Shown here in pieces: positions 10,387 through 43,110 of a stretch of 64,000 nt of DNA. The stretch lies in the NCBI RefSeq assembly GCF_053078305.1, contig NZ_CP166879.1. One strand, given 5' to 3'. The notes below the pieces were generated by a model. It was not told the DNA's origin, did not search any database, and saw only the letters and a list, made by a program, of their open reading frames with translations. Numbering within the stretch: the first letter of the stretch is position 1; the number at the start of each line of letters is the position of its first letter. Made by a program: the position numbers and the translations under genes.

Positions 10387-12335
10387 GCAAGAAGGAGTTG
10401 AAACCCGAACTGCTAACAGTAGGCAAGCTATTCACGGACAATTATCTGATTCCTATTTATCAACGGAACTATGCTTGGCGGGCCGAACAGATTGAGCAAC
10501 TTATCAGCGATATTCAAGACTCGGTTGTTGGGGGCCAGGACGACTATTTTCTTGGAAACCTTGTTGTAATCAAGCGGGGTAGAGAGGACGAGTTCGAGGT
10601 CATAGATGGACAACAACGACTTACAACCCTCTATCTGCTTCTGACCTTCCTGGAGCAAGACGGTGAGGGTGGGAAGCCGTCGATTGGCCATGCAGGCCAC
10701 TTGCAATATGAGTCGCGTGCACGGGCAACGGAAGCCCTGCGGCGAGTAGCACAGGAGGCGGCTAAGGGGCACGTCCGACCGCAGGGCTCCACGAGTAATG
10801 CAGATGCTGGCATCCATGAAGGCTACAGCATCATCAATCAGTTCTTCAAACAAAATGAAACCCTTAATTGCTCACGCGAAAAATTCTCCGATTTCTTGCT
10901 AACGAAGGTTACTGTCGTCCGTGCCTCGCTGCCACCCAATACAGATCTCAATCGCTACTTCGAGATCATGAACACTCGTGGGCAGCAACTCAAGCAGGTT
11001 GATATTGTTAAGGCTCGCCTGATGAGCAAGCTGCCCAATCAATATGAACGCGAATGCTTCGCCTGGGTTTGGGATGCCTGTGCTGAGATGGATTCTTATG
11101 TCCAGATGTCTCTGACCCGTGGTGACACCAGTTTGCGAAACAAAGTATTTGGCGATGAATGGTCCTGGCTGGAGGTGACCAGCTTCGCGTCGTTAATGGA
11201 AAGTCGTCCGCAATCCGGCATCAATTCTTCAAGGCAATCCTCCGAAGGGGTATCGTTGTCCTTGGATGAGGCGTTGTCAAAATACGCTAAAGAGATCGAG
11301 TCAAATTCCACTGAAGACGAGGGCAACGAGCGGTTTCGTTCGACTATTGAGTTTCCGGCCTTTCTGCTACACGTTCTAAGAATTATGAAAGGCGATGAGG
11401 TCGAAGACGAAGGCCAGCTTGACGACAAACGCCTCATCAAGTCATTTGACGACGCTGTAAATAATGTACCCGATGCTAAAGCCGATTGGGTGCGTAACTT
11501 TACATTCATGCTCCTCAAGTGCCGCAACCTCTTCGATGGCTTCATTTTGAAGCGTCAATTCACGGCGAACATCGGTGACGATGGCGATTGGTCTCTCCAG
11601 CGATTGAAGAAAGGCGGCGCGGACAAGAAGCCAACCCCGACGTATATCCATGTTTTCTCGGCCAGCAATGGAAACTTAGAGGAGGACGGCGGTGCTGACC
11701 CACATACCCGAGATGTATTGCTGCTTCAGTCCATGCTTCGGATAACCTACACTTCTCCGCGAACGATGCACTGGATTACCAAAGTTCTTCGCTGGCTATC
11801 CGTCAAAGCCCCTCAAGACGCGAAACATGCGGATCTTGCCGATTTGTTGAAGGGGTATGCCCGCAGCAAGGTCAAAGAGACATTCCCCTTTGAGGAAGAT
11901 CAGCAACCACAAGGGTTTGGTATCAGCCGCATCGTCTTTTCGTATCTCGACTATCTTCTGTTGAGCGATTCCTCAAAACGAGATTTCAAATTTCAGTTCA
12001 GAACTTCCATTGAGCACTTTTATCCACAGCATCCGGACAAAGAACAGTCGGGCGCGGTTGTTTCAGGTTCTAGCCTTAACCTGCTTGGCAACCTTGCGCT
12101 CGTAAGCGTCAGCGCGAACTCAAAATTCAGCAATAGCCTTCCCAGAGCGAAGGCCGAAAACTTCAAGGATACGATTGAACTTCAAAGTCCCAAGCTCAAG
12201 AGAATGGCGGAAATCACTCGAAATACAAGCTGGGACGATCAGCAGATAACAGCTCATCATGAAGAGATGGTGACATTGCTTCGTGATGATGTAAGTCTGG
12301 TGGAGGCAAGCGGAAGATCCTACCCGGGGCGTTGA
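10383..12335 (+). CDS. DUF262-DUF1524 protein (GmrSD/SspE/BrxU-family type IV restriction endonuclease-like); accessory gene B
   Basis: 650 aa; N-terminal IPIYQRNYAW plus DGQQR (10605..10619) plus FEIMNTRGQQL; C-terminal His-Me finger motifs SIEHFYPQHP (12009..12038) and NLLGNLALVSVSANSKFSN (about 12072..12128). Confidence 0.85.
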   Translation: MSKKELKPELLTVGKLFTDNYLIPIYQRNYAWRAEQIEQLISDIQDSVVGGQDDYFLGNLVVIKRGREDEFEVIDGQQRLTTLYLLLTFLEQDGEGGKPSIGHAGHLQYESRARATEALRRVAQEAAKGHVRPQGSTSNADAGIHEGYSIINQFFKQNETLNCSREKFSDFLLTKVTVVRASLPPNTDLNRYFEIMNTRGQQLKQVDIVKARLMSKLPNQYERECFAWVWDACAEMDSYVQMSLTRGDTSLRNKVFGDEWSWLEVTSFASLMESRPQSGINSSRQSSEGVSLSLDEALSKYAKEIESNSTEDEGNERFRSTIEFPAFLLHVLRIMKGDEVEDEGQLDDKRLIKSFDDAVNNVPDAKADWVRNFTFMLLKCRNLFDGFILKRQFTANIGDDGDWSLQRLKKGGADKKPTPTYIHVFSASNGNLEEDGGADPHTRDVLLLQSMLRITYTSPRTMHWITKVLRWLSVKAPQDAKHADLADLLKGYARSKVKETFPFEEDQQPQGFGISRIVFSYLDYLLLSDSSKRDFKFQFRTSIEHFYPQHPDKEQSGAVVSGSSLNLLGNLALVSVSANSKFSNSLPRAKAENFKDTIELQSPKLKRMAEITRNTSWDDQQITAHHEEMVTLLRDDVSLVEASGRSYPGR

Positions 12336-12553
12336 CTTCTTTGAATAACCGCTTTTGGACGAATGTCCCTTGTGGAGTGCAAGTTGTCAGTTTAAAAGTG
12401 TTTTGCGTCGGGCGACACGATCAGTACAGCTCCCAGGTTTTTTTACCATGGTATTTTGTGTGGTATCGACATGCAAAGATAATGCTATTTTGTTGATTTT
12501 ATAGTGTTTTAAGGCGGCATTGATCATCGAGTGGGAATAAACCCTGTACATAT

Positions 12554-28757: not shown

Positions 28758-29606
28758 TCAGGATTCCTGACGTAAATAAATAGCCCGATAACAAATACTC
28801 ACCAGCACTGCACCGCCGATAATATTACCCAGCATCACCGGGAGCAGATTGGCGGTAATAAAATGGCTGACCGTCAGTGCAGGAAAATTGTCTGCGCTAC
28901 TGTGCGCCAGTTGCCAGAAGGGGCGTGGGGCAAAATGGCGAATGGCAATGGCGAACGGAATCACAAACAAATTGGCGATACAGTGCTCAAAGCCACTGGC
29001 GACAAACAGGGTGATGGGCAAAATCATGGCGACGATTTTGTCGCATAACGAACGCCCGCAATAACTCATCCACAGCGCCAGGCAAACCATCAGATTGCAC
29101 ATAATGCCGAGGCTGACAGATTCAGTAAATGTATGATGCATTTTGCCCTCGGCGCAGTGTAAAACCGCGACTCCCCACATCGCGTTTTCACTCATCACCA
29201 GCCCGGAAAACCAGATTAACAAACTGAAACAGGCAATACCTGCCAGATTACCGCAGGCCACCAGAAGTGCGTTAATCAGCCAAGTTCGCCAACTAATAAC
29301 GCCCCGACTTTTTGCCATCACCGTCATTACCGACGAGGTGAACAGGCTGGTGCCACAAACCGCCAGCAAAATAAAGCCGAGTGTAAAGCAAAGGCCGCCC
29401 ACCAGATGGGTTAATGCCTGTGAAGACGGGGCATCGGCGATAACGGAAAGGTAAAAAGTAAATCCAATCGCCATAAACACGCCAGCGGACATCGCCATTA
29501 AAAAGACCGATACATTGCTGCGGGCAATTTTATGGGCAGCAATCCGTTCAGCGATTGCCGCTTTTCTGGCGCTCAACTGCAAGTCGAAAGAGAGTTTATT
29601 TCTCAT
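28758..29606 (-). CDS. focB: formate channel FocB (FNT family)
   Basis: 282 aa polytopic FNT-family sequence; last gene of the hyf cluster. Confidence 0.92.
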   Translation of the reverse strand: MRNKLSFDLQLSARKAAIAERIAAHKIARSNVSVFLMAMSAGVFMAIGFTFYLSVIADAPSSQALTHLVGGLCFTLGFILLAVCGTSLFTSSVMTVMAKSRGVISWRTWLINALLVACGNLAGIACFSLLIWFSGLVMSENAMWGVAVLHCAEGKMHHTFTESVSLGIMCNLMVCLALWMSYCGRSLCDKIVAMILPITLFVASGFEHCIANLFVIPFAIAIRHFAPRPFWQLAHSSADNFPALTVSHFITANLLPVMLGNIIGGAVLVSICYRAIYLRQES

Positions 29607-29627
29607 GCATACTCCTGCAAAAACAGA

Positions 29628-31640
29628 TTACAACACCTCGCGAACCGAGATCCCCAGACGCTGCATTCGTGACAGCAGCGTGGTGCGCTTCATCCCTAAT
29701 CGTGTCGCCGCGCCACGGGGCCCGGCAACAATGCCATTGGTTTCTCGCAATACCTGAACAATGCGCTGACGTTCTTCTTCGTCATTCTCTGGCGTCGTCG
29801 GGTGCAGCAACTGCGCCATTGAACTGCGAAGCGCTGAATCTTCATTTAGCGTCGGCAGTAAACGGCTTTGTCGGACATTAAGATGTAAATTCAGACTGTT
29901 ACCGCGAGTCAGCAGTACCGCTCGCTCAATCACGTTTTCCAGCTCGCGCACGTTGCCCGGCCAGTCCCACGACATCAACTGGCGTAGCGCCTCGGTTGGG
30001 ATGGCGTCAATTGCGCGATTCATATGGCGCGCCATTTTTTGCGTGAAATGTTTTGCTAAAAGAGGGATATCTTCCGGACGGTCGCGTAGCGGCGGCAATT
30101 CCAGTGGGAAGACATTCAGGCGATAAAAGAGATCGCTGCGAAACTGGCGATCTTCAACCATTTGCCACAAATCACGGTTGGTGGCGGCAATGACTCTGAC
30201 ATTCACCGGGATCGTTCTACTCCCGCCGAGACGCTCAATCTCCCGCTCCTGCAATACGCGCAGCAATTTAGGCTGAAGTTCTAACGGCAGATCGCCAATT
30301 TCATCGAGAAACAACGTGCCGCCATCGGCAATTTCAAAACGACCACGATGGGTATTAATCGCACCAGTAAACGCCCCTTTGTCATGACCGAATAACTCAC
30401 TTTCCAGAAGACTGGCGGGGATGGCAGCGCAGTTGATTTTGACCAGCGGTTTGTCGCGTCGCGGGCTAAGTTGATGGATCGCTCTGGCGATCACCTCTTT
30501 GCCGGTTCCGGTTTCACCGCAAATCAACACCGTACTGTCGCTCTTCGCCACAATATCTACCTGCTGGAGCAGGTCTTCCATTGCCTGGCTTTGATAGATA
30601 ATGTCACCGACGCCCAGATTCGAAAGGAGCTGCTCGCTAAGCTGGTGGTTTTCTTGCTGCAAACTTTCCTGCAAATCGGTCATGCTACGCCAGGCATCGG
30701 CATTGCCAACGGCAATAGCGATGCGATCGGCTATGTGTTGTAGTAGCTGGCAGTTTTCCTCACTAAAGAGAGTGGAAGAGGTATGCGCCAGCAACAATGC
30801 ACCCGGTGTATGGTTGCCAAAGGTAAGCGGTATCAGGAGCGCAGATTCGCAGCCGTTAGATGCAAGTAAGTGTAATAATGGGTCGCGTTGCCAGAGAAAC
30901 AGATCGTCTGCACGGTGCGTCAAGGTCGGTTGTCGGGTTTGTAGCGTTTGTGTCAGCAATACACTGTCGCCAGGCATATTGCGTGGCAGACACGCACAAT
31001 GTGAGGCAGAAAGATCGCTGCACCACAGGCTGAACTTCTCGTTCTTTCGATGATCGCCCAGTACCATACTGACTGAAGCCAGACCGAAAAAATGATGGAT
31101 CTCACGGGCGACGTCAGCGATCAGATCGTCGAGATCAAGATGTGACAGCACTGCATTAGTGATATCCACCAGTACCCGATGATGATCGCGATCTTTCTCC
31201 AGCAAACGCAGCGCCACCTGTTGTTCTTCATCATTGAGCCATGATTGCAGAACCGGGGTGATAATGCGTGCCAGCCAGTTAAACAGTGTGCAATCCTGGG
31301 GAGTAAAACGGCTGCCGTGGGTACGAATAAAGCGTAGCTCCGCCATTCCACTACTGCCGAGAAGGACGGCGTGACGCGAATAATCGACCATCTCGCCCTG
31401 ATACTCTACTGTTGCCGTCACATCGCTGCCATCATCATGGTAGCGGTAATAGAAGTTGCTTTTGAGAACATGCAGTTCAATAAGTTGTACCGGGCTGAAC
31501 GGCGGCGGCAGCGGGATGAAGGCGCGTAATAAAGACGCCTTGCCGTGTTTCTGCGCTAACCGCTCCGCGAGCATTCCGTTTACCGCTTCAATTGTTATTC
31601 CTTGCGGCGGGGCAAACATCGCCTCGTCTGACATAGCCAT
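29628..31640 (-). CDS. hyfR: HyfR, sigma54-dependent transcriptional activator (FhlA-like)
   Basis: GAF N-terminus, AAA+ sigma54-interaction domain ([14 protein letters not shown]), C-terminal HTH; ATG at 31640 chosen (track ORF begins at TTG 31643; another ATG at 31634). Confidence 0.9.
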
Positions 31641-31669
31641 CAACAGTCCTTATTAATGAGAAATCCTTC

Positions 31670-32083
31670 TCACGCAATTTTTCTGGCCATCAGATAGATG
31701 GCCGGTTCCAGCACAATTTCATCCAACAGATGAATGAATTGAATGCTACGCGCCTGCCACGCCGACGTCGCGTCATCTGCCAGTGGCGCGAATGCCCGGG
31801 TCAACAGGGCGGTGTGGCTGGCGTCAATAACAATCTCACCAAAGGTCATCACCCCCAGCATCTTACGTCGGGCTTGCTTCTCTTCGACCTGTGCAAGCCA
31901 ATCTTCGTATTCCGTCTGTGGGCAGCGGAAGGCGACATTCAGACAATCAATCACGCCAACGTGATGACCGATAGCCAACGAGTAATACATTACCTGGGAG
32001 CTGTGTTCCGGCATCTCGTCGCTACTGGCGATAAATTTTTTTCGCAGCGTCCAGAAAACAATTTCCCCGCACTCTTCAGTCAT
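31670..32083 (-). CDS. hyfJ: HyfJ (HycH-like hydrogenase maturation/assembly protein)
   Basis: 137 aa from ATG 32083 ([13 protein letters not shown]...); overlaps the hyfI stop by 8 nt. Confidence 0.88.
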
Positions 32084-32834
32084 GTAACCCCCGGAGTACG
32101 CGAAAGAGTTGCTGAACGATACTATTGAGACGTGGATCGTCGGCATCGCGCAACCAGGTGTTAACCCGATTTCCTGTAGGATCGTCGCTTAAATGGCGCA
32201 GGAGCCGATCGCAAATTTCTCGCCCCTGACGATAGCCCGCCAGCCGCCGCGCTTCTCGCTCAATGGCGATACGCTGTGATGGCGGGATCTGCGGCCACAA
32301 CGGTTGCATAGTCACCCCGGTGGGATCGCGATAATCCACAGCGTGAATCTTCTGTTGCAGCAAACCGAGCGCCACGGCGAAACCGTGAATGGTGGCGGCC
32401 GGTGTTGGCGGGCAGCCGGGGATCCAAACATCAATGGGGACAATGGTGTCGCTGCCGCCCCAGACGCTGTAGAGATCGTGGAAAATACCGCCGCCGACAC
32501 CGCACGCGCCGTAGGAAACACAAATTTTATTATCGGGGGCAGACTCATACGCCCGAAGTGCAGGCATACGCATCGCCCGGGTGACTGCGCCAGTAAATAA
32601 CAAAATATCGGCGTGACGCGGTGATGAAACAACCTTAATGCCAAAACGTTCTGCGTCGAATACTGGTGTGATGGCGGCAAAAATTTCGATTTCACAGGCG
32701 TTGCAGCCGCCGCAATCGACGCGATAAACGTAGGCTGAGCGACGGATATCCTGTAGCAAATGCCGCTTCATCTTTTGCGTTTGCTCGTCCAGCGTGATGG
32801 GCTGGCTGACATGTTGTGTAAGCACTGGACTCAT
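32076..32834 (-). CDS. hyfI: hydrogenase-4 small subunit (HycG/NuoB-like)
   Basis: 252 aa with NuoB-type cysteine ligands (CGGCNAC ... CPGCPP). Confidence 0.93.
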
Positions 32835-33376
32835 AGCTGCTCCTTAGCCACCAGCGGTACATCTGTATCGTCGTTGATCAGCGTCGCGCGTTGTTTGCAC
32901 TCCGGGCAGACGCTCGCTTGCGCCCGCAACATTTCGCGGTTTTGTGGCGCATTTTGTTGCTGTGCCAACAATTCAGCAGCCAGTGCGACGGTTTTTTGCG
33001 GGGCAAACGGGCGTTCGCAACGGCTGCAACGTTGTAGATGGAACGTCGCGCGGGTATAGAGATCGGCTTTATTGGTGACGGTCAGTTCAAAGTTATTGGT
33101 AAGCTGAATGGCTCTGGTCGGGCACACTTCTTCACAACGTCCGCAGTAAATACAACGCCCCAGATAGAGCTGCCAGGTGCGCGAATTTTGCTGGTCGTCG
33201 GTCTGGATAGTCAGCGCATTTGCCGGACAAGCACAGGCGCAGGCACCACAGGCAATACATTGGCTGGGCATCAGGTCCGGTTTCCCGCGAAAGCCTGGGC
33301 TGACCTCCAGTGGCGCGAAGGGATATTTCACCGTCGCGGTTCCGGCGCGCATAATAGTTTTCAGTAACTTCAGCAT
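32831..33376 (-). CDS. hyfH: hydrogenase-4 Fe-S subunit (HycF/NuoI-like, 2x[4Fe-4S])
   Basis: 181 aa with CxxCxxCxxxCP ferredoxin motifs. Confidence 0.93.
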
Positions 33377-33385
33377 CTTCTGTCC

Positions 33386-35101
33386 TTACTTCAGCGGCGA
33401 ACGGTTACGATCAATGCCGTAGCGTTCGATCTCTTTATACGGCACGGTTTTTGACTGGCGCTTGCGCACATCAACCAGCGTCACACGGTCGGTACAGGAG
33501 TAGCAGGGATCAAGGCTACCGATAATCAGCGGTGCGTCAGAAACGGTATTGCCGCGTAGCATGTAACGCAGCACCGGCCAGTTGGCGTAGGTGGCGGCAC
33601 GACAGCGCCAGCGGAACAATTTTTGATTATCACCGAGCATGCTCCAGTGCACGTCTTCACCGCGTGGCGCTTCAACAAAGCCCAGCGCGAATGCGTGAGG
33701 TTTATAGCTAAAGCCTTCGGTCAGCAGTGGGGTATCCGGCATGTTGTCGAGAGCAAATTCCAGCATTGCCAGCGAATCAAACGTCTCTTTGACACGGACC
33801 ATCACGCGGGAGAAAACATCGCCGCCGGTGAAGGTAAACAGTGTTTTTGGAATATTGCCGTAGTCGGCATAGGGGTGATCAAAGCGCAAATCACGGGCAA
33901 AACCACTGCCGCGGATCAGCGGCCCTACATGGCTATATTCACGGGCGATTTGTCGGTCGAGAATGCCAATGCCCTGAGTGCGTTGTTCCATATTCGGCGT
34001 AGCAAGCAGCATCTCTACCAGCTCCGACACGTCGGCGCGCATCTCGCGCACCAGTTTCAGCGTTTGCAGACGTTGCTCTTTGAGAATATCGCGGCGAACA
34101 CCACCAATCAGATTCAGACCGTAGGTTTTACGCGACCCGGTCAGCAATTCCGCCATCGTCATCGACTTTTCCCGCACGCGGAAAAATTGCATAAAGCCGG
34201 TATCAAAACCAACAAAATGGCAGGAGAGGCCAAGATTGAGCAAATGACTGTGTAGCCGTTCGACTTCCAGCAGAATCGAGCGAATGGTATGCGCTCGTTG
34301 CGGCACCTCAATCCCCAGTGCATTTTCAACCGAGTTGGTATAGGCCACACTGTGGGCAAAACCGCAAATCCCACACACGCGGTCCGATAAGAAGGTCACT
34401 TCGTTGTAGCCCATCCGCGTTTCTGCCAGTTTCTCCATGCCGCGATGGACATAAAACAGACGGTAATCAGCATCGACAATTTGCTCGCCATCCACAAACA
34501 AGCGGAAGTGACCCGGTTCATCGGAGGTGATATGCAGCGGGCCGACAGGGATCACCCGCGCATCGCTGTTGCCCTCATTGATAAACGGATACGTTTCGGA
34601 ATCAGTCGTCGGTTCAGGGCGCAGTCGATAATCCATCGCATCTTTGCGCAGCGGATGCATATCTTCCGGCCAGTCATCGGGCAACACCAGGCGACGCTGA
34701 TCCGGCAGGCCAACCGGAATCAGCCCGTACATATCGCGAATTTCTCGCTCGCCCCAGACCGCGGCAGGGACGCGCGGTGTGACTGACGGAAACTCCCGAC
34801 TGTCGGCATCGACCAGCGCCTTCACCACAATCCAGCATTTTTCGGCCCCTTCCATTGAAAGGGCATAATAAACCGCGTAATGACCGTTAAGTGTCCGCTC
34901 GTCGTTGCCAAACAGGACCGGAAGCCAGCCATCATGTTGATAATAAAGATACTGTACAACGTCAGGCAGCAGATTGATTTTCACCGTAATGGTGACCTGT
35001 TCAGGCGTTTGTCGCTCTTCATCCAGCACCGCGCCGGGGAACTGCGTTTTCAGGGCGGCGAGAATCGCTTCGCCACGATTTGACGATGAATTAACGTTCA
35101 C
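33386..35101 (-). CDS. hyfG: hydrogenase-4 large [NiFe] subunit (HycE/NuoCD-like)
   Basis: [12 protein letters not shown]-terminal Ni-ligand motif and [10 protein letters not shown]-terminal motif; no in-frame ATG near the N-terminus, so GTG at 35101 proposed (overlaps the hyfF 3' end); exact start uncertain. Confidence 0.85.
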
Positions 35102-36671
35102 TGTGTTTCTCCGAAACAGATGCGGTGCCTGAAGGCAAAAAATCATGCCAGGTGCTACGTTGTGCAGGCAGATCGTGCGTCCCTGAGAGGACTATAGTGG
35201 AAGCGCCCGCCAGGATCCTGATGACAGGTTGTGGAATATGCGTTCCCATCGCCAGCATCATGACCAGCAGAATCACCATTGGCGAGGTGGTCAACCAGCC
35301 GAGATCACCCCGGTTAACGGCCTGCGGCGGTTTCGCCATTAACACCCGCGCAGCCATCCGTACCAGGCCCGCCAGCACCAGCGTTAACAGCAATAACAGC
35401 AGGACGATAATCAGCAGGTGATTACGTGCCAGTCCGGCGGTAACGGTCATAAATTCGCTAAGAAAAATGTTGAAGGGCGGCATCCCTGCCAGCGCCAGCG
35501 CACCGCCGCCAAACAGCACGGCGGTAAATGGCATGATTTTGAGCATCCCACAGACGACGTTGAGATCGCGCGTGCCGTACTTGAGCAGTACATTGCCGGA
35601 ACCGCAGAACAGCAGCGTTTTTGCCAGACTGTGGTTTAAGGTGTGCAGCAGCGCGGCAAAAATTCCCAGCGGCCCGCCAATGCCTAGCGCCACCGCGACC
35701 AGTCCCATGTTCTCCACGCTGGAGTACGCCAGCAGACGCTTAATGTCCCGCTGTACCAGAATGAAAAATGCCGCCACGGCAACCGACAACATGCCGAAGA
35801 TGAGCAACAACCGGTTGGGGAAATCGCTGCCGATGGCCTGGCAAATAATGATGTAATAGCGAATCAGCACCAACAGCGCGCAGTTCAGCAATACGGCGGA
35901 GAGTAGGGCGCTGACCGGACTCGGCGCTTCACTGTGAGCATCCGGCAGCCAGGCGTGCATGGGAAATAGCCCGGTTTTGGTACCAAAGCCAATTAGCACA
36001 AACACAAAGGCCAACAGCATTAATGTTGGATCAAGCAAGGACGATTGCTTAAGAACCTCGCTCCAGAATATCGCCATTTCTGCCTGCGGCATAAAGCTGG
36101 CGGCGTTGGCGTATACCAGCACGGTACCGAACAGACCAAAAGCGACACCAACAGTACAAATAATGATGTACTTCCATGCTGCTTCCAGCGATGAACGCTG
36201 ACCGTAAATGCCTACCAGAAACGCCGAGCTTAAGGTGGTGGCTTCGATCGCCGCCCACATCACAATCAGGTTATTGCTGGTAACAACCAGCAGCATGGTG
36301 AACAAAAACAGATGGAAGAAACCGTAGTAATCGCACAGCGTAACGGGTGAAAGCTCGCCGTGTGCCACTTCATGACGCATGTAGCCAATCGAGTAAACAC
36401 CGGTGAGAAAGCCAATCACACCAAGAATGGCGAGGAACAAACCGCCCAGACCATCAATATGAAGCCACAGTCCCGCAGCGAATATTTCTCCTGCATCAGC
36501 GGCAGTTTGGACCACCCAGAGTGCCAGAATCAGCAGCAGTGTGATCCCTAAGCTATGTAATACGGTCACCGTGCGAGTCGCAGAGAGCCTCCGTTTCCGG
36601 CAGGCAAAACAGAGCAGCGAAAAAAGCAGCGGCGTGAGCAGGAGTAAAGCGAACATCACAGAATAACTCAT
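35091..36671 (-). CDS. hyfF: hydrogenase-4 membrane subunit (NuoL/M/N antiporter-like)
   Basis: 526 aa polytopic, NuoM/N-like. Confidence 0.92.
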
Positions 36672-36675
36672 CTCA

Positions 36676-37326
36676 TTATCCCTTCAGCGCGGTCAAGTTG
36701 TTCACGTCCAGCGTGCCGTGGGTACGCCATATTTTTCTTGCCAGTAACACCATCACAATGACGGCGAAGATGGCGTCGGTAGCGATACCAATTTCCACCA
36801 GTTCCGGTGCACGCCAGGCTAGAAGCGCCAGCACCAGATGGGAGCCGTTTTCCATCAGGCAGTAACCAAAAATTTGCCGCAGGATATTGCGCTGGCTAAC
36901 AATGCACAGCAGGCCAAGCAGAAAATGACCTAACGCCACCGCCAGCGCAGGTTTCAGCCCGGTAGCCATCGGTAGCTTCACGGGCTGAACGACAAATGCG
37001 CAAAGCAGGACAATTAACGCCGCGAGCAGTGCCATCATTGCCGGACCGAATAACGCTTTTTCCGGGATGTTCTGGGGAATATTTCGTGCAGCGTAAGTCA
37101 TGATTAACGGTACCAGCAGCACTTTGGTGATAAAGGCGCTGGCGGACCAGATCAGCAGTTGCTCTGCGGCGAACAGGCACGAGAGGGTGGCGAAAATAGA
37201 CACCAGCACCAGTGACTGGCAGGCGTAAAATCCGCATGACAGGCGATAGCTTTTGACGCTAATCACAAACAGCGATGTCAGCATCATCAGTCCCGCCAGA
37301 TTATTTACGATCATAGAACCGGTCAT
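36676..37326 (-). CDS. hyfE: hydrogenase-4 membrane subunit HyfE
   Basis: 216 aa hydrophobic protein. Confidence 0.9.
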
Positions 37327-37337
37327 TCATCATCTCC

Positions 37338-38777
37338 TTACTGCAACCAGGTCGCGGCGATTACGCTGGAAATCAGCGACATCACAATCAGTACAATCAG
37401 CACCAGGCGCATTGACCCTGGCAGCGGTGCGGCATCGGCGACGGCCTCGCTCGGTTTGCCGGGGACGACGCGACCAAACCAGCGAATAAACCAGGCGAAA
37501 CTGGCGACCGATTCAATCATCAGCAGAATCATGGCGGGCAGCAGGATCCAGTACTCCACTGACAACGCAAAACCGGCAGCAAACAGCGGGAATTTACTGA
37601 AGAAGCCGTTGAACGGCGGTACGCCGGTAATCGCCAGCGCTGCCACGCAGAAACCCACGCCTGGCAACGGCAGGGTGTGCAATACGCCACGCAGACGCGG
37701 CAACAAGCGCGTGCCGCAGCTGTAACTCAGCGCACCTGCTACAAGGAAAAACAGGCTTTTAGCGAACGCGTGGTTGACGATGTAGGCGATGCTGCCCTCC
37801 AGCGCCAGCCGCGAGCCGAAGATGGAGAGCGACAAGCCGAAGAACATCCAGCCAAGTTGAGTGATGGTCGACCAGGCCAGCAACCGCTTCATATCCTGCT
37901 GTGGCAAATACATCAGAAATCCATAAAGAATGGTGACCAGCGCCATGACCATGCCAACGCCGCCAATCACATGCGGGATATTGCCGCCGTCGATAATGGC
38001 GCGGGCAAAAATGTAAACGCCCACTTTCACCATCGATGCGGCGTGGAGATAGGCGCTGATCGGTGTTGGCGCTTCCATTGCGTCCGGTAGCCACGCTTGC
38101 ATCGGTAGCTGGGCCGATTTCCCCCACGCGGCAAACAGGATGCCGCCATAAACCAGATAACGTGCGTCGCCGTGTAACTCGCTCATCGCGCTAAGCGCAA
38201 ACGTTCCGGTCTGCAAAAACAGCGTGGCGGCGGCAAGATACAACCCCAACGAACCGATATGGGTGATAAGCAACGCTTTTAGTGCTGAACGCTGCGCTTT
38301 ATCGCTCTGGTAATAACTGATCAACGCCCAGGAGCAGCCGCCCGTAATTTCAAAAAACAACAACTGACCGAGCAGCGTCGAGGAGAGTACCAGTCCCGCC
38401 ATCGCGCCGATAAACAACAGCAAAAATGCGTAATAACGATTCGTGCCGTTATGCGGGTGTTCGCGATTTTTATCCGTCAGATAACCCGTGGAGTAGATCG
38501 TGACCAGCAAACCGAGAAACACCACCACAAACAGAATCAGCGTACTCACGCGATCAATGAGCAGGCCAAACAACGCCACATCCCCCACGTTGACCAACGT
38601 CAACGTGACGGCAACTTTATCGGCCTGATAAAACGCGGAGATCAGTGACAACATGCACAGCGTGGTCAGCGCGGCGAACAAAACCCCCCATTCGGCGGCC
38701 CGACGTTGTGGCGAAAACGAAACGACCAGTGCGCCGATAAAAGGCAGCAATAACGTCGTCAGAGCAAGATTTTCCAT
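37338..38777 (-). CDS. hyfD: hydrogenase-4 membrane subunit (NuoM/N antiporter-like)
   Basis: 479 aa polytopic. Confidence 0.92.
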   Translation of the reverse strand: MENLALTTLLLPFIGALVVSFSPQRRAAEWGVLFAALTTLCMLSLISAFYQADKVAVTLTLVNVGDVALFGLLIDRVSTLILFVVVFLGLLVTIYSTGYLTDKNREHPHNGTNRYYAFLLLFIGAMAGLVLSSTLLGQLLFFEITGGCSWALISYYQSDKAQRSALKALLITHIGSLGLYLAAATLFLQTGTFALSAMSELHGDARYLVYGGILFAAWGKSAQLPMQAWLPDAMEAPTPISAYLHAASMVKVGVYIFARAIIDGGNIPHVIGGVGMVMALVTILYGFLMYLPQQDMKRLLAWSTITQLGWMFFGLSLSIFGSRLALEGSIAYIVNHAFAKSLFFLVAGALSYSCGTRLLPRLRGVLHTLPLPGVGFCVAALAITGVPPFNGFFSKFPLFAAGFALSVEYWILLPAMILLMIESVASFAWFIRWFGRVVPGKPSEAVADAAPLPGSMRLVLIVLIVMSLISSVIAATWLQ

Positions 38778-38793
38778 ATTCCGTCAGTGCTCC

Positions 38794-39741
38794 TTACAGA
38801 CCGGTTAACCAGAAGACCCATGCAAGCGCAGCAAGGCTGAAGCCAAGCCAGGTCACATGGTGAATGAGTAAAAAACGCCCGCGTGCCAGCGTGTTTTCTG
38901 CGATAGAGGCCAGAACAAAAATCAGCAAAACCTTGAGCAGCGTAACGACAAGTGAAGTCAGCAGGCAGGCGAGAGAAAGCTCTTGCGCGCGCCCAAAGGG
39001 CAGAAACAGGGCCACAAACAGTGCTGCCATCACGACCTGTTTCAGCCCCAGCCCCCATTTCGCCAGCGCCAGCCCGGCACCGGAATATTCGGTCAGCGGG
39101 CCTTCCTGTAATTCCTGTTCTGCTTCAGCAACATCAAAGGGAATTTTTCCCATCTCAATGAAGCAGGCAAAACCACAGGCCAGTAACGCCAGGACGGTGG
39201 TTAGCGGCGAGTTCCAGCCCGTTGCCAGCGTATTGCTGATCATCTCGATATGCGTGGAACCTGCTATCAGCGCCAATACCAGCAGTGAGAGAATGAGCAT
39301 GGGTTCGACCAGAATGCCGAGCGTCAACTCGCGACTGGCACCGACCCCCGCAAACGGGCTTCCGGTATCCAGCCCGGAAAGAGCAAAGAAAAAACGAAAC
39401 AGGGCAAGAAGATAGATAAGGGTGATCAGATCGCCGCCGCCCGCAAAAGGGGAAACGGTAATAAATAGTGGTAGGGCCATCGCCAGCACCAGCATGCTAC
39501 TGATTAATACCCACGGCATCAGGCGGAACATCAGACCTGAAGATGTCGGCGCAACTTCCTGCCGTTTAAACAGTTTGTGGATATCGCGATAATCCTGCCA
39601 GATCCCCGGTCCGCGGCGGGAGTGCATTCGCGCGCGTATCTGCCGGGAAATACCCGTAAAAAGTGGGGTTAGCATCAGCAGAATCACGGCCTGTGCTAAC
39701 GCAAAAATGACCAGATATCCGTCGCAAAGAGTTTGTCTCAT
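38794..39741 (-). CDS. hyfC: hydrogenase-4 membrane subunit (HycD/NuoH-like)
   Basis: 315 aa from ATG 39741 (MRQTLCDGYLVIF...) with AAGGAA RBS; track ORF is N-extended into hyfB. Confidence 0.9.
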   Translation of the reverse strand: MRQTLCDGYLVIFALAQAVILLMLTPLFTGISRQIRARMHSRRGPGIWQDYRDIHKLFKRQEVAPTSSGLMFRLMPWVLISSMLVLAMALPLFITVSPFAGGGDLITLIYLLALFRFFFALSGLDTGSPFAGVGASRELTLGILVEPMLILSLLVLALIAGSTHIEMISNTLATGWNSPLTTVLALLACGFACFIEMGKIPFDVAEAEQELQEGPLTEYSGAGLALAKWGLGLKQVVMAALFVALFLPFGRAQELSLACLLTSLVVTLLKVLLIFVLASIAENTLARGRFLLIHHVTWLGFSLAALAWVFWLTGL

Positions 39742-39751
39742 GGTGATTTCC

Positions 39752-41770
39752 TTAGACGGCAATAGCGATTAGCAGCACAACCAGTGCGGCGACCACATAC
39801 AGGCAATAGAGACGAAAGTCGCCGCTTTGCAGATGCTGTATTTCTTTGGCCAGCCGTTGGGTGGCGCTCACGATGGGGCGGATCACCCGCTCATCCCAGA
39901 AGGGTTCTGTGCTCTGAGCTCTGGCGGTGACGTGCGCAAGACCTTTATTTAGCCTCAGCGTAGGGTCGAGCTGTTGTCGTAGACGAAATAACGCAGAGAA
40001 GACCACACGCAGCGGCTGCATCACGCCATTGCCTGACGGAGCCATCGCGTTTTCCCAGCTGTAGCCGCATGCCCAGGCATCTCCTGTGCGACGAAACGCT
40101 GCGCGGCGCGAACGACACCACAGCCAGTAAAGGCCAGGCAGTAAAGGCATCGCCAGTAGTAACAGCAACAGTAATGAGGGAGTGACCCGTGTATGAAACG
40201 TGCCGGGTACAAGTGCTATTCCGCTGGCGACAGTGACGGGAGGGGTATTGGTAAAGGCATGGGCAATATGCATTATCTTCGGTGCCAGCCAACTGGCACT
40301 AAGCGCAATTAATACGCAGAGTGCCGCGAGCAGTAGCATGGCGACGATCATCGTATTTGGCACTTCCTGTGCCTCTTCAGCGTGTGTACTGCGCGGCGCA
40401 CCACAGAAAGTAATACCGTACATTTTGACGAAGCACATTACTGCCAGCCCACCAGTGACTGCCAGCATCACCATAGCAATAGGACCCGCAAGTTGTAGCG
40501 CTACGGCTTCCACACGACTTAGTGAGAACAGCGACTGCCAGGTGTACCATTCGCTGATAAAACCATTCAGCGGAGGAAGGGCTGATATCGCGAGGCAACC
40601 AATCAGGCATGCTGCGGCTGTCCACGGCATCCGTTTCGCCAGTGCCCCCATTTTTTCCATGTCGTGGGTATGCAAACGCGAAATAATCGCGCCCGCGCCG
40701 AGAAATAGCAGCCCTTTGAACAGCGCATGGTTGAGCAGATGAAACAGTGCGCCGAGCAGTCCAACCACGGTGAGCAGCGGGTCGTGCAGTGACAGACCGA
40801 CCATCGCCACACCGACTGCCAGCAAAATAATGCCGACGTTTTCGACGGTACTCCAGGCCAGCAGCCGTTTGATATCCTGTTCCGCCAGCGCATACAGCAC
40901 GCCCAGGAGCGCGGAGATTGCGCCGATCGCCATCACCAGAATGCCCCACCACAGAGGCAAACCCGTTTGCGCCAGCAGATCCATCGCTACTTTCAGGATG
41001 CCGAAAATACCGATTTTGACCATTACACCAGACATCAACGCCGAAGCGTGCGATGGTGCGGCAGGGTGAGCGCGCGGCAACCAGCTGTGCAACGGCATCA
41101 TCCCGGCTTTCGCGCCAAAACCGAAAAAGGCCAGCAGGAACACCGCCGACGCCAGCCCCGGAGAAAGTGAAAGCGTGCGGAAACTGGCAAAATCGAGGCT
41201 GCCGCTTTCGCGCCCCATCAGCAAGAAGGCGATCATTATCAGCACCGATCCGGCGTGGGCGATAAAAAAGTAGAGCATGCCAGCGTTGATCGACGTTTTA
41301 TCCTGCCTGGCAATGACCAGAAACCAGGAAGACAGCGACATCATTTCAAACAGCACGATGAACCAAAAAGCGTTGTCCATCACCAGCAGGGCAACCATCG
41401 ATGCGATGAAAATATTCATAAAGAAGCCCATCGCCGCCGCGCCTTTGCCCTCGTATTCGCGCATATAAGTCAATGAATAGAGCGAACAAACCACCACCAG
41501 CAAGGAGATAACCAGCACCATAAATGCCGAGAGGCTATCCATTCGCAGGGTTAAATCGGCAAAGTCAAAAGGGGTGGCAAAACGGGCGACTAAAGTTACG
41601 CCTGCATGTAATTGCGTAATTCCGCTGATGATGCCAATCACGCCGCCCACCAGCGATGTGATGCCGGAAAGCTTAATAGCCAGTCTGTCCAGACCGAGTA
41701 AAAACAGCGAAGCCAGACTGGCAAACAGATAGAGGATCAGCGACCAGGTTAATAATTGCAGGGCATCCAT
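39752..41770 (-). CDS. hyfB: hydrogenase-4 membrane subunit (NuoL-like)
   Basis: 672 aa polytopic; start ATG overlaps the hyfA stop (TAATG). Confidence 0.93.
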   Translation of the reverse strand: MDALQLLTWSLILYLFASLASLFLLGLDRLAIKLSGITSLVGGVIGIISGITQLHAGVTLVARFATPFDFADLTLRMDSLSAFMVLVISLLVVVCSLYSLTYMREYEGKGAAAMGFFMNIFIASMVALLVMDNAFWFIVLFEMMSLSSWFLVIARQDKTSINAGMLYFFIAHAGSVLIMIAFLLMGRESGSLDFASFRTLSLSPGLASAVFLLAFFGFGAKAGMMPLHSWLPRAHPAAPSHASALMSGVMVKIGIFGILKVAMDLLAQTGLPLWWGILVMAIGAISALLGVLYALAEQDIKRLLAWSTVENVGIILLAVGVAMVGLSLHDPLLTVVGLLGALFHLLNHALFKGLLFLGAGAIISRLHTHDMEKMGALAKRMPWTAAACLIGCLAISALPPLNGFISEWYTWQSLFSLSRVEAVALQLAGPIAMVMLAVTGGLAVMCFVKMYGITFCGAPRSTHAEEAQEVPNTMIVAMLLLAALCVLIALSASWLAPKIMHIAHAFTNTPPVTVASGIALVPGTFHTRVTPSLLLLLLLAMPLLPGLYWLWCRSRRAAFRRTGDAWACGYSWENAMAPSGNGVMQPLRVVFSALFRLRQQLDPTLRLNKGLAHVTARAQSTEPFWDERVIRPIVSATQRLAKEIQHLQSGDFRLYCLYVVAALVVLLIAIAV

Positions 41771-42387
41771 TAGCGTTGCTCCTGAGTGAGGGAAAGGGGA
41801 TCCTCCCCGCCATTGGCAAACCAGCTTGCGGCAAGGCGCTGTTTTTCTTTCATCTGACGTTGCAGGCTATCGCCGGTGATCAGCCGTAACGCCTGATTCG
41901 GGCAAGCGCGAACGCAGGCCGGACCTTCTGGCAAGAAATCACACAGGTCGCATTTCACCGCGACGGTCTGGACACCCGGTTCCCAGCGCAGCAAAGCATG
42001 TTGTGTTTGCGCGTTTTCTTCGCCGTCTTTGAGTGAGCCCTCAGCCTGAAAAACATATTGCGCAGGGGCATTCACCGGACGGCTTCCTGAAGCGCTGATT
42101 GCGCCAAATGGGCAGACCACGGCGCAAAGCTTGCAGCCAATACAGAGGCTTTCGTTGAGTTGGATCGCATCATCCCTCTGGGAGATGGCATTGACCGGGC
42201 AGACCTGCAGGCAAGGGGCTTCCTCACAGTGATGACACACGACAGGGGCAGTGAGTGTTGACGTCTTCGCCAGGGCCAGGCGCGGGTGTTGCTGTAAACC
42301 TTGCGTTTTATGCACGTCCGAACAGGCAGCGAGACAGGTATTACATCCTGTACACCACAGTGGTTCGGCCACCACAAAGCGGTTCAT
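41770..42387 (-). CDS. hyfA: hydrogenase-4 ferredoxin-type Fe-S subunit (HycB-like)
   Basis: 205 aa from ATG 42387 (MNRFVVAEPLWCTGCNTC...), four Cys clusters. Confidence 0.92.
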   Translation of the reverse strand: MNRFVVAEPLWCTGCNTCLAACSDVHKTQGLQQHPRLALAKTSTLTAPVVCHHCEEAPCLQVCPVNAISQRDDAIQLNESLCIGCKLCAVVCPFGAISASGSRPVNAPAQYVFQAEGSLKDGEENAQTQHALLRWEPGVQTVAVKCDLCDFLPEGPACVRACPNQALRLITGDSLQRQMKEKQRLAASWFANGGEDPLSLTQEQR

Positions 42388-42428
42388 GTCGGCTCCTTGA
42401 AAATGATATGAAACATTGCATTTCATAA

Positions 42429-42444
42429 TGCATAAAGGATGCCA
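42429..42444 (-). promoter_or_regulatory. sigma54 (-24/-12) promoter of the hyf operon
   Basis: Minus strand reads TGGCATCCTTTATGCA: GG and GC dinucleotides at canonical spacing (consensus TGGCAC-N5-TTGCA), about 40 bp upstream of the hyfA ATG; co-located with hyfR. Confidence 0.7.
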
Positions 42445-42539
42445 GTATGATTAATTTAATATATTCAATAAGTTATGAATTAACTGGATTCTGAGCGGTA
42501 CAAAAATGATGGTCATTAACGTTCAGCAAAAAATGGATT

Positions 42540-42553
42540 CGACACCCGTGTCG
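42540..42553. promoter_or_regulatory. inverted repeat about 100 bp upstream of the hyf sigma54 promoter (candidate enhancer/UAS)
   Basis: cgacac cc gtgtcg perfect 6-bp arms. Confidence 0.35.
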
Positions 42554-42639
42554 CAGGGGAAAGTGAGAATGTGATCTTGGTCACGAGAAGTGAGGTGTGC
42601 TGACCGCAAGCGCAGCCAGCACGGAATGGAGCAAAGTAA

Positions 42640-43110
42640 TCAGGCGTGTTCTTTCAACCAGTTCAGCACAACGTCGTGGTGATTGCTGGTTTTGAAATCG
42701 TCAAAGACATGTTCGATTTTGCCATCAGCGTCAATCAGGAAGCTGATGCGATGAATACCATCGTAGGTTTTGCCCATGAAGGACTTTTCCCCCCAGACGC
42801 CGAATTGCTCGCACACCTGGTGGTCCTCATCAGACAGGAGCGTAAAGTTAAGCAGCTCTTTTTCCGCAAAACGGGAGAGTTTTTCGGGTTTATCGGTGCT
42901 GATACCCAGCACATCAACGCCCGCTTTTTTCAACTCATCCATGTTATCGCGTAAGCCGCAGGCCTGTACGGTACAGCCGGGGGTCATGGCTTTCGGGTAG
43001 AAATAAACCAGAACACGCTGTCCCTGGAAGTCGGTCAAATTAACTTGTTCTCCGTCTTGATCCGGCAAGCTAAATTTCGGTGCGATATCACCGGCTTTCA
43101 GTGGATTCAT
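42640..43110 (-). CDS. bcp: thiol peroxidase Bcp (peroxiredoxin)
   Basis: 156 aa, peroxidatic Cys in PKAMTPGCT motif. Confidence 0.95.
   Translation of the reverse strand: MNPLKAGDIAPKFSLPDQDGEQVNLTDFQGQRVLVYFYPKAMTPGCTVQACGLRDNMDELKKAGVDVLGISTDKPEKLSRFAEKELLNFTLLSDEDHQVCEQFGVWGEKSFMGKTYDGIHRISFLIDADGKIEHVFDDFKTSNHHDVVLNWLKEHA

Follow-up and report, generated by a model that had tools for sequence, protein, structure and literature searches.

The minus strand of the window (the whole 64-kb stretch of DNA analysed here) carries at positions 28758-42387 the E. coli hyfABCDEFGHIJ-hyfR-focB cluster, as identified by megablast. The junctions between the hyf genes are real, ordinary operon architecture, already known; the paralogous hyc operon and other operons of the window share the same spacings. 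In the reading that we consider likely, this is the known hyf (hydrogenase-4 / formate hydrogenlyase-2, FHL-2) operon with normal compact junctions, at which termination-reinitiation is combined with SD-led initiation. In itself, the finding of tight junctions is of little weight: it restates what is annotated for the junctions of a textbook operon, and the interpretation offered is already in print, with a test at one junction. What is added here is the near constancy of the hyfA-J geometry across at least five genera and a design common to four junctions, in which the stop codon lies inside the SD.

Genes, junctions and start sites of the hyf cluster

RefSeq/PGAP gene coordinates match the open reading frames of the window one-to-one. 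Megablast, RefSeq and the comparison with K-12 place the cluster between bcp and yfgO, in the order hyfA-B-C-D-E-F-G-H-I-J, then hyfR and focB, all on the minus strand. The first genes encode an Fe-S subunit (hyfA, 41770-42387; 205 aa; ATG at 42387, SD CAAGGAGC), an antiporter-like membrane subunit (hyfB, 39752-41770; 672 aa; NCBIfam NF005086, 978 bits against a cutoff of 667) and a NuoH-like protein (hyfC, 38794-39741; 315 aa). They are followed by the extra antiporter-like/membrane subunits HyfD (37338-38777; 479 aa; NF005097, 810 bits, cutoff 430), HyfE (36676-37326; 216 aa; NF008556, 369 bits, cutoff 136) and HyfF (35091-36671; 526 aa; NF005041, 1177 bits, cutoff 951), all three scoring above the curated cutoffs of their NCBIfam equivalogs. 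Next come the [NiFe] large subunit (hyfG, 33386-35101; 571 aa), in a full-length allele with codons 386-401, an Fe-S subunit (hyfH, 32831-33376; 181 aa; NF006076, 364 bits, cutoff 270), a NuoB-like small subunit (hyfI, 32076-32834; 252 aa) and a HycH-type maturation chaperone (hyfJ, 31670-32083; 137 aa; NF011664, 205 bits, cutoff 145). A sigma-54 activator (hyfR, 29628-31640; 670 aa) and a formate channel (focB, 28758-29606; 282 aa) complete the cluster. All twelve reading frames are full length with zero internal stops, in agreement with the earlier claim that frameshifts are absent, and the protein lengths are those of K-12 except for HyfG (571 aa here, 555 aa in K-12). The initial annotation had also described a complete ten-gene structural block plus regulator and formate channel. 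Completeness was borne out; the count of ten was not, since HyfJ is a maturation chaperone outside the structural subunits, which makes nine structural genes and one chaperone.

Stop-to-start distances were counted using the RefSeq and K-12 starts, negative values denoting overlap. Four of the nine hyfA-J junctions are overlaps, and each was read in the sequence as the initial annotation had it. hyfA and hyfB share one nucleotide at 41770 in the TAATG at 41768-41772 (-1); hyfF and hyfG overlap by 11 nt (35091-35101), with the hyfG GTG at 35101, its SD CGGAGA and the hyfF stop at 35093-35091; hyfH and hyfI overlap by 4 nt in an ATGA (32831-32834; -4); and hyfI and hyfJ by 8 nt in ATGACTGA (32076-32083; -8). 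The other five are spacers of +4 to +16. At hyfE/hyfF (36669-36678; +4), TAATGAGATG contains the in-frame tandem stops TAA TGA. At four junctions the stop codon opens the SD (UAAGGA or UAAGGAG): in hyfB/hyfC (39739-39754; +10) the SD TAAGGA at 39754-39749 begins with the stop TAA, so the hyfB stop does sit inside the hyfC ribosome binding site as had been claimed; hyfC/hyfD (38775-38796; +16) has TAAGGAG, stop codon and SD both falling within TAAGGAGC; hyfD/hyfE (37324-37340; +11) has TAAGGAG as well, and hyfG/hyfH (33374-33388; +9) has TAAGGA. At the regulatory junctions, hyfR begins 29 nt past hyfJ (+29) and focB 21 nt past hyfR (+21). Junction geometry in the curated K-12 annotation is identical to that of the window.

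A sigma-54 type -24/-12 promoter element, TGGCATCCTTTATGCA, lies on the minus strand at 42444-42429, 41 nt 5' of the hyfA ATG. In a motif scan of the 64-kb window, nothing else matched TGGCAY-N5-WTGCW perfectly; its function as a sigma-54 promoter is putative, suggested by the motif and by K-12 hyf literature as cited in PMC7654741. The hyf genes are presumably on one transcript, the spacers leaving no room for a terminator and a promoter together; the literature calls hyf a 12-cistron operon (PMC7654741). In K-12, hyf is described as barely expressed or inactive in work cited in that article. An Rfam scan of the whole window gave zero known RNA families and hence neither a known riboswitch nor a known sRNA at the hyf junctions.

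For every gene the annotated start is the one with the strongest SD among the in-frame candidates. At each junction the SD lies in or just past the 3' end of the preceding gene, with a pairing energy of -5.1 to -9.3 kcal/mol. The GUG start of hyfG has been remarked on before (PMC7384014). Longer ORFs exist for hyfA, hyfC, hyfG and hyfJ (from 42426, 39762, 35146 and 32146, respectively), and no N-terminal protein data were found for Hyf; both points lend something to the view that the overlaps arise from misannotation, with the real starts elsewhere and junctions that are not tight. However, the alternative starts have weak or absent SDs (-1.5 to -2.6 kcal/mol) and are unconserved in other genera, and the ATG at 42426 adjoins the -12 promoter element and precedes the point where transcription is expected to begin. 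Starting at the next in-frame codon downstream, for its part, would cost N-terminal residues whose alignment to HycE or to family profiles begins at position 1. An annotation artefact is therefore extremely improbable, and we retain the tight junctions as annotated.

Demonstrated and proposed translational coupling at the junctions

That such junctions suggest translational coupling is the accepted reading, and for hyfH-hyfI coupling has been shown with two-reporter constructs, in which a premature stop in the upstream gene abolishes hyfI translation (Huber 2019, PMC6728339; Huber 2023, PMC10666635). In the same studies, removal of the SD lowered hyfI translation by 60-90% and added spacing decreased it; termination-reinitiation at this junction is SD- and distance-dependent, with 10-30% de novo initiation. 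Between -99 and +30, the hyfH-hyfI fragment of the window differs from that of K-12 at three positions (-92, -66 and -22), none of them in SD, start or stop. We infer that coupling extends to the other eight hyf junctions. In E. coli, gene pairs at -8 to +10 nt are 4.5-fold enriched for subunits of heteromeric complexes, pairs at +9 to +12 likely initiate independently and those at +11 to +20 are gene-specific (Huber 2023, PMC10666635). Six of the nine hyfA-J junctions lie in the -8 to +10 range (A/B -1, B/C +10, E/F +4, G/H +9, H/I -4, I/J -8); C/D (+16), D/E (+11) and F/G (-11) fall outside it. The coupling claim of the initial annotation holds less well for the five junctions that are spacers of +4 to +16, at which coupling is gene-specific and independent SD-led initiation equally possible.

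In the mechanism that we favour, a single sigma-54-dependent transcript would begin upstream of hyfA, with de novo loading of ribosomes at the SD of hyfA. A ribosome that terminates at any of the boundaries would then be -11 to +16 nt from the next start, each start having its own SD. At A/B, F/G, H/I and I/J the same ribosome, or its 30S subunit kept by SD/anti-SD pairing, could re-initiate; termination-reinitiation is probable at E/F (+4) too, and at the +9 to +16 junctions short-range re-initiation would be mixed with ordinary SD-led initiation. The outcome would be roughly proportional, co-localised synthesis of subunits for a 1:1 membrane complex, together with continuous ribosome cover along a transcript of >10 kb. 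Stoichiometric assembly may be the purpose of coupling. As a counterpoint to proportional synthesis, HyfJ is no stoichiometric subunit, and hyf is hardly expressed in K-12 according to the literature cited in PMC7654741.

Predicted opening energies were 4.9-8.5 kcal/mol at all nine junction starts except that of hyfJ (10.6), against a background mean of 10.1, the initiation regions at most hyf junctions being predicted more open than random internal sites; such openness does not discriminate between re-initiation, RNA unfolding and independent initiation. With an SD of its own and a predicted open initiation region, a cistron could feasibly initiate independently, a counterpoint to coupling. 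The same predictions bear on a different form of coupling, in which the upstream ribosome melts a hairpin hiding the next start and a new ribosome initiates. The hyfI start codon is predicted to lie in a stem, with its SD in a loop, a stable structure was predicted at the hyfHI initiation region by Huber 2019 (PMC6728339), the opening energy at hyfJ is average rather than low, and a 2025 review keeps both models open. Against such unfolding speak the openness of most of the initiation regions and the steep drop of hyfI coupling with distance, which would not follow from unfolding (PMC10666635, 2025 review). We regard coupling by unfolding as improbable and continue to prefer termination-reinitiation with SD-led initiation.

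Conservation and context of the junctions

A scan of genome contigs yielded a comparison set of eight loci, the window plus seven hyf operons of Klebsiella, Citrobacter, Phytobacter and Brenneria with 50-92% protein identity to it; the genera having proven active FHL-2 (Pectobacterium, Trabulsiella and Proteus) are outside this set. The A/B distance is -1 in seven of the eight loci, and B/C is +10 in seven; the hyfB stop is fused to GGA throughout. C/D keeps its +16 and TAAGGAGC in all eight, the spacer sequence being variable. D/E (+11 or +12), E/F (+4 or +5), G/H (+9 to +11) and the ATGA of H/I likewise recur in eight out of eight. Overlap at F/G is found in all loci, its length varying (-4, -8, -11, -23) as the hyfF stop drifts, with a hyfG GTG start in seven of the eight; I/J also overlaps throughout (-4, -8 or -20). 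Spacer lengths within hyfA-J hold while their sequences vary. In Klebsiella indica and Citrobacter, in contrast, the J/R spacer is 109-111 nt (29 nt here) and the R/focB spacer 115-124 nt (21 nt here). Over at least five genera the nine hyfA-J junctions are nearly constant, and the two regulatory ones vary freely. Between hyfJ and hyfR, other genera have one weak sigma-70 promoter match (ATTACA-16-TATAGT); a promoter there is no more than an idea, the number of matches being equal to that expected from shuffles.

Tightness could also result from deletional bias or operon compaction alone, with each cistron independently translated from its own SD and with the overlaps and stop-in-SD arrangements as by-products of an SD placed ~5-11 nt before each start. 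Measured against their surroundings, all nine hyfA-J junctions are at most 16 nt, a limit kept by 9 of the window's 27 remaining same-strand neighbours (Fisher p = 5e-4), and seven of the nine fall in the -8 to +6 or +9 to +12 classes, to which 30.5% of unidirectional pairs in E. coli belong (binomial p = 0.005), both baselines including pairs outside shared operons. Likely operon pairs of the window that form no complexes are equally tight (purM-purN -1, gcvR-bcp -1, ppk-ppx +4, yffB-dapE +3, a DUF262 pair -4), as compaction would have it. TAAGGAG occurs five times in the window against 3.7 expected, three of the five copies at hyf junctions; with no enrichment over the window as a whole, it is the placement of the motif alone that counts. 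Compaction further accords with the presence of an SD at all 11 downstream starts, with the predicted accessibility of the initiation regions, with the view that +9 to +12 pairs are likely independent (PMC10666635), and with bioBF, which alone among five overlapping pairs tested in E. coli proved uncoupled (Huber 2019, PMC6728339). The direct experiment on hyfI, most of whose translation depends on that of hyfH (PMC10666635, PMC6728339), argues the other way, as does the fixed hyfA-J geometry in genera whose J/R and R/focB spacers shift four- to five-fold. Constant spacer length may nevertheless reflect SD-to-start spacing alone, since the position of the SD is tied to the stop codon. On balance, compaction alone is an unlikely explanation, and termination-reinitiation combined with SD-led initiation remains our preferred one.

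hyfG alleles and comparison with known systems

The HyfG protein of the window is a group-4 [NiFe] large subunit with an N-terminal RxCGxCxxxH motif, a C-terminal DPCxxC motif (DPCYSCTDR) and a C-terminal extension; it aligns with HycE end to end (7z0s_E HycE, E = 9e-293). K-12 and 2115 of ~4290 hyf-bearing complete E. coli genomes lack 48 nt of hyfG through an in-frame deletion with the 8-bp repeat GCCCGTGA on its flanks; the segment is retained in the window and in 2179 further genomes. The deletion takes out 16 residues including GPxxRGSG, a motif conserved from HycE to the 49-kDa subunit of mitochondrial complex I and intact in the window HyfG. The hyf cluster is wholly absent from ~21% of complete E. 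coli genomes. A literature search of limited coverage found no report of the hyfG deletion, which may still be published. The intact hyfG found here may outweigh the junctions. We suggest, tentatively, that the deletion might inactivate HyfG and that intact strains could make a working, tightly coupled FHL-2; if true, this would explain why hydrogenase-4 has never been activated in K-12 despite strong promoters. With intact and deleted alleles about equal in number, and K-12 carrying the deleted one, this polymorphism may serve researchers of E. coli hydrogen metabolism more than the junctions do.

The K-12 hyfABCDEFGHIJR-focB operon (Andrews et al. 1997, as cited in PMC7654741) agrees with the window in its 12 genes, their order and all junction distances. 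K-12 Hyf proteins are 96-100% identical to those of the window; over the hyf region, the closest complete E. coli genomes reach an overall identity of 99.1-99.2%. Among the coupled pairs of Huber 2019 and 2023, hyfH-hyfI, with its ATGA and upstream SD, is the very junction tested there, and the predicted class also takes in A/B (-1) and I/J (-8). The five spacers of +4 to +16 and the single -11 depart from these pairs, with +11, +16 and -11 lying outside the predictive range.

The paralogous E. coli hyc operon (hydrogenase-3 / FHL-1, hycBCDEFGHI) is equally tight, with distances of -4, +2, +17, +9, -1, -4 and -8. The spacing of large subunit to Fe-S subunit is +9 in both (hycE/hycF and hyfG/hyfH), whereas hycG/hycH is -4 and hyfI/hyfJ -8. 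Overlap types differ as well, A/B being -1 in hyf and -4 in hyc, and H/I -4 in hyf and -1 in hyc; having no counterparts of hyfD, hyfE and hyfF, hyc has three junctions fewer. The trp, atp and ribosomal protein operons, the classical coupled examples, resemble hyf in their short overlaps or spacers between cistrons for interacting proteins, and the benefit proposed for them is matched synthesis (Huber 2023, PMC10666635; 2025 review). For those operons, however, expression is high and measured ratios exist, whereas hyf is near silent in laboratory E. coli, according to the literature cited in PMC7654741.

Organisation of the hyf cluster and its junctions

A megablast search with window positions 31000-43000 matched 5,425 of 5,426 complete E. 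coli genomes (top identity 99.2%), the annotated features beneath the match being hyfA to hyfR. Gene coordinates were transferred to the window from the RefSeq annotation of the best match (window = locus + 26999). All on the minus strand, they place hyfA at 41770-42387, hyfB at 39752-41770, hyfC at 38794-39741, hyfD at 37338-38777, hyfE at 36676-37326, hyfF at 35091-36671, hyfG at 33386-35101, hyfH at 32831-33376, hyfI at 32076-32834, hyfJ at 31670-32083, hyfR at 29628-31640 and focB at 28758-29606, and they coincide with ORFs in a mechanical ORF listing of the window. HyfB, HyfD, HyfE, HyfF, HyfH and HycH/HyfJ exceeded the curated cutoffs of NCBIfam equivalog models, and HyfG matched HycE of the solved FHL-1 complex (7z0s_E, E = 9e-293). 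All 12 ORFs are intact, as the initial annotation had maintained in describing the cluster as complete and free of frameshifts, and their lengths equal those of K-12 except for HyfG (571 aa vs 555). Ordinary E. coli chromosome flanks the cluster, with hisS through purMN and upp-uraA on one side and bcp-gcvR and dapA through tkt-tal on the other.

The closest complete genome is strain D8 for positions 1-25000 (99.4%), O55:H7 and O157:H7 strains for the hyf region (99.1-99.2%) and YZMc3-1 for 42400-64000 (99.7%). By these identities, the change from segment to segment indicates either mosaicism through recombination or a lineage that has been little sampled. Positions 1-25000 are covered to at least 80% in just 4661 of 5426 genomes, so that part of this segment is variable; two DUF262-domain genes overlapping by 4 nt between guaA and yfgI (426 and 650 aa; 9106-12335, plus strand), neither of them a named core gene, are likely candidates for the variable part. 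Proteins with DUF262 are frequently tied to restriction or defence that depends on DNA modification. A scan of the whole window against Rfam found no family.

Stop-to-start distances were taken directly from the window sequence. They are −1 nt at hyfA/hyfB (TAATG), +10 at hyfB/hyfC (where TAAGGA opens with the stop TAA), +16 at hyfC/hyfD (TAAGGAGC), +11 at hyfD/hyfE (TAAGGAGA), +4 at hyfE/hyfF (TAATGAGATG), −11 at hyfF/hyfG (the start being GTG), +9 at hyfG/hyfH (TAAGGAC), −4 at hyfH/hyfI (ATGA) and −8 at hyfI/hyfJ (ATGACTGA), followed by +29 at hyfJ/hyfR and +21 at hyfR/focB. The curated annotation of K-12 MG1655 has identical geometry, and every junction figure reported initially proved correct. 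The overlaps depend on the choice of start codons, as the initial annotation had recognised. When all in-frame ATG, GTG and TTG candidates around each start were scored for pairing with the 3' end of 16S rRNA, the annotated start had the best Shine-Dalgarno (SD) sequence in 12 of 12 genes (−5.1 to −9.3 kcal/mol); pairing was weak or absent (−1.5 to −2.6 kcal/mol) at the starts of longer ORFs for hyfA (42426), hyfC (39762), hyfG (35146) and hyfJ (32146). Upstream of hyfA, the sole perfect match in the 64-kb window to the sigma-54 −24/−12 consensus, with the sequence TGGCATCCTTTATGCA, lies at 42444-42429 (minus strand), 41 nt from the hyfA ATG. Six positions differing between K-12 and the window flank this element, none falling inside it. 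The ATG at 42426 was rejected as the hyfA start: its SD is weak or absent, and a mere 3 nt separate it from the −12 element, which places it upstream of the expected transcription start.

Spacing across genera

Scanning with HyfF, one genome per species, returned eight loci, and hyfA-J is complete in seven of those scanned: Klebsiella indica, four Citrobacter, Phytobacter ursingii and Brenneria sp. Their Hyf proteins are 50-92% identical to those of the window. With starts in these relatives set by homology and SD, independently of any annotation, distances were compared over eight loci, the window included. The hyfA/hyfB distance is −1 in seven (+2 in C. amalonaticus) and hyfB/hyfC +10 in seven; hyfC/hyfD is +16 and hyfH/hyfI reads ATGA in all eight; hyfD/hyfE is +11 or +12, hyfE/hyfF +4 or +5 and hyfG/hyfH +9 to +11. 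Overlap is found in every locus at hyfF/hyfG (−4, −8, −11 or −23) and hyfI/hyfJ (−4, −8 or −20), where the upstream stop drifts and the start and its SD stay unmoved. At the positive spacers, the sequence from SD to start is free to vary and its length is constant. The hyfJ/hyfR spacer measures 29 nt in E. coli as against 109-111 nt in Klebsiella indica and Citrobacter, and the hyfR/focB spacer 21 nt as against 115-124 nt. Since distances are steady from hyfA to hyfJ and variable at these two spacers, the constraint on geometry is specific to genes hyfA to hyfJ, with the caveat that at four junctions the SD opens with the stop codon, and the fixed distance may merely restate the required SD-to-start spacing.

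At hyfE/hyfF (36669-36678), tandem in-frame stops TAA TGA end hyfE, and TAATGAGATGA allows a second reading as a mini-ORF of 2 codons, ATG AGA TGA, which shares 1 nt with the hyfE stop and 4 nt with the hyfF start; the arrangement TAATGNNATGA is found again in 6 of 8 loci. Superficieibacter sp. 1612_C1 carries a hyf remnant (about 10100-12500 of its locus) devoid of hyfA-E and hyfG-J, in which a frameshifted hyfF fragment is fused to the 3' end of hyfR and followed by focB.

Loss within E. coli and a deletion in hyfG

In alignment with Klebsiella indica and Citrobacter, the hyfJ-hyfR spacer (31641-31669) shows a clean 82-nt deletion in E. coli, and the hyfR-focB spacer (29607-29627) falls short of that in other genera by about 95-100 nt. 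A sigma-54-like sequence, CTGGTACGCACTGTGCAT, precedes focB in four of the five loci from Klebsiella indica and Citrobacter (one base off in C. amalonaticus) and is missing from the E. coli spacer. On this comparison, hyfR and focB in E. coli may no longer have promoters of their own; such a loss, if true, might contribute to the silence of the operon. Over window positions 28758-42600, about 1,134 of the 5,425 complete genomes of E. coli matched at the bcp end only, the whole hyfA-focB cluster being absent. In a further group (O103:H2, for example), matches are about 210-260 nt shorter and split into two or three pieces, and hyfD is listed there without a gene name, just as "hydrogenase 4 subunit D". 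The shortened or split matches and the absence of the cluster suggest that decay of the operon is ongoing within E. coli.

The hyfG gene of K-12 MG1655 lacks 48 nt that are kept in the window (33899-33946, minus strand, codons 386-401). The deletion is in frame (near position 11642 of the K-12 locus), has an 8-bp direct repeat, GCCCGTGA, on its flanks and removes 16 residues whose counterpart in aligned HycE is ARDFSNVGPMVRASGH. Within the deleted segment lies a GPxxRGSG motif that is also found in HycE and in the 49-kDa/NuoD/ND7 chains of complex I. Among complete E. coli genomes, 2,179 keep the segment whole and 2,115 contain the deletion junction of K-12; jointly the two alleles account for the approximately 4,291 operon-bearing genomes. 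Other genera, with HyfG of 575-578 aa, retain the segment, which marks the deletion as derived. The deletion could explain the inactive hydrogenase-4 (Hyd-4) of K-12; other candidate defects are the missing HyfK protease and the shortened control regions of hyfR and focB. In the work of Finney et al. 2020 (PMC7654741), neither promoter swaps nor HyfG-HycE tail fusions yielded H2 production by K-12 Hyd-4; term searches of that paper turned up no mention of the deletion, and no paper describing it was found in the literature searched.

Translational coupling and comparison with other operons

The junctions had been read initially as translational coupling for stoichiometric assembly. For hyfH-hyfI, coupling is established: this was one of five native overlapping E. 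coli pairs chosen by Huber et al. 2019 (PMC6728339) for a two-reporter construct holding the final 99 nt of hyfH and the opening 30 nt of hyfI. Downstream translation became undetectable or extremely low once a premature stop was introduced, and removal of the SD lowered re-initiation by 60-90%. The K-12 fragment used differs from the window at −92, −66 and −22 only. Huber et al. 2023 (PMC10666635) found that the last 15 nt of hyfH are enough for hyfI re-initiation and that re-initiation falls with added spacing, by 80-90% at +38 nt; hyfI tolerates about +14 to +15 nt and has 10-30% de novo initiation. Coupling at the other eight junctions, and stoichiometry as its purpose, we infer. The published termination-reinitiation class is matched at six of nine hyf boundaries; for the +9 to +12 class, independent initiation or other means are considered likely (Huber et al. 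2023). We propose that a single sigma-54 transcript would carry the hyf genes; termination-reinitiation would act at the four overlaps, and probably also at hyfE/hyfF (+4), and a mixture of re-initiation and SD-led initiation at the +9 to +16 junctions. Subunits of a 1:1 complex would then be made proportionally and co-localised.

Subunits of heteromeric complexes are encoded by 30.4% of E. coli pairs at −8 to +10 nt and by 6.8% of those spaced more than 20 nt apart (Huber et al. 2023). A 2025 review keeps both RNA unfolding and ribosome re-initiation/scanning as models. By accessibility calculation, start sites at the hyf junctions are mostly more open than random internal positions, hyfJ alone being average, which neither requires nor excludes coupling. 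Finney et al. 2019 (PMC7384014) remark on the hyfG GUG start in E. coli and Pectobacterium and report that HyfG rises when upstream membrane genes are deleted, an effect compatible with upstream translation limiting that of hyfG, though no proof of it. As to the ten-gene structural block described initially, all ten genes are intact, but HyfJ is a HycH-type chaperone and no subunit; for this reason the hyfI/hyfJ overlap is not about strict complex stoichiometry.

Distances of at most 16 nt are found at 9 of 9 hyfA-J junctions vs 9 of 27 other same-strand neighbours in the window (Fisher p = 5e-4), and seven of the nine fall in the classes −8 to +6 or +9 to +12 (binomial p = 0.005 against the 30.5% of E. 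coli unidirectional pairs jointly in these classes; Huber et al. 2023), both baselines also counting neighbours from separate operons. Equally tight are probable operon pairs in the window: purM-purN (−1), gcvR-bcp (−1), ppk-ppx (+4), yffB-dapE (+3) and the DUF262 pair (−4). The tightness of the hyf junctions is real and non-random, yet it is the usual appearance of an operon; the junctions hold nothing new. The paralogous hyc operon of K-12, which encodes hydrogenase-3, is just as tight, with distances of −4, +2, +17, +9, −1, −4 and −8.
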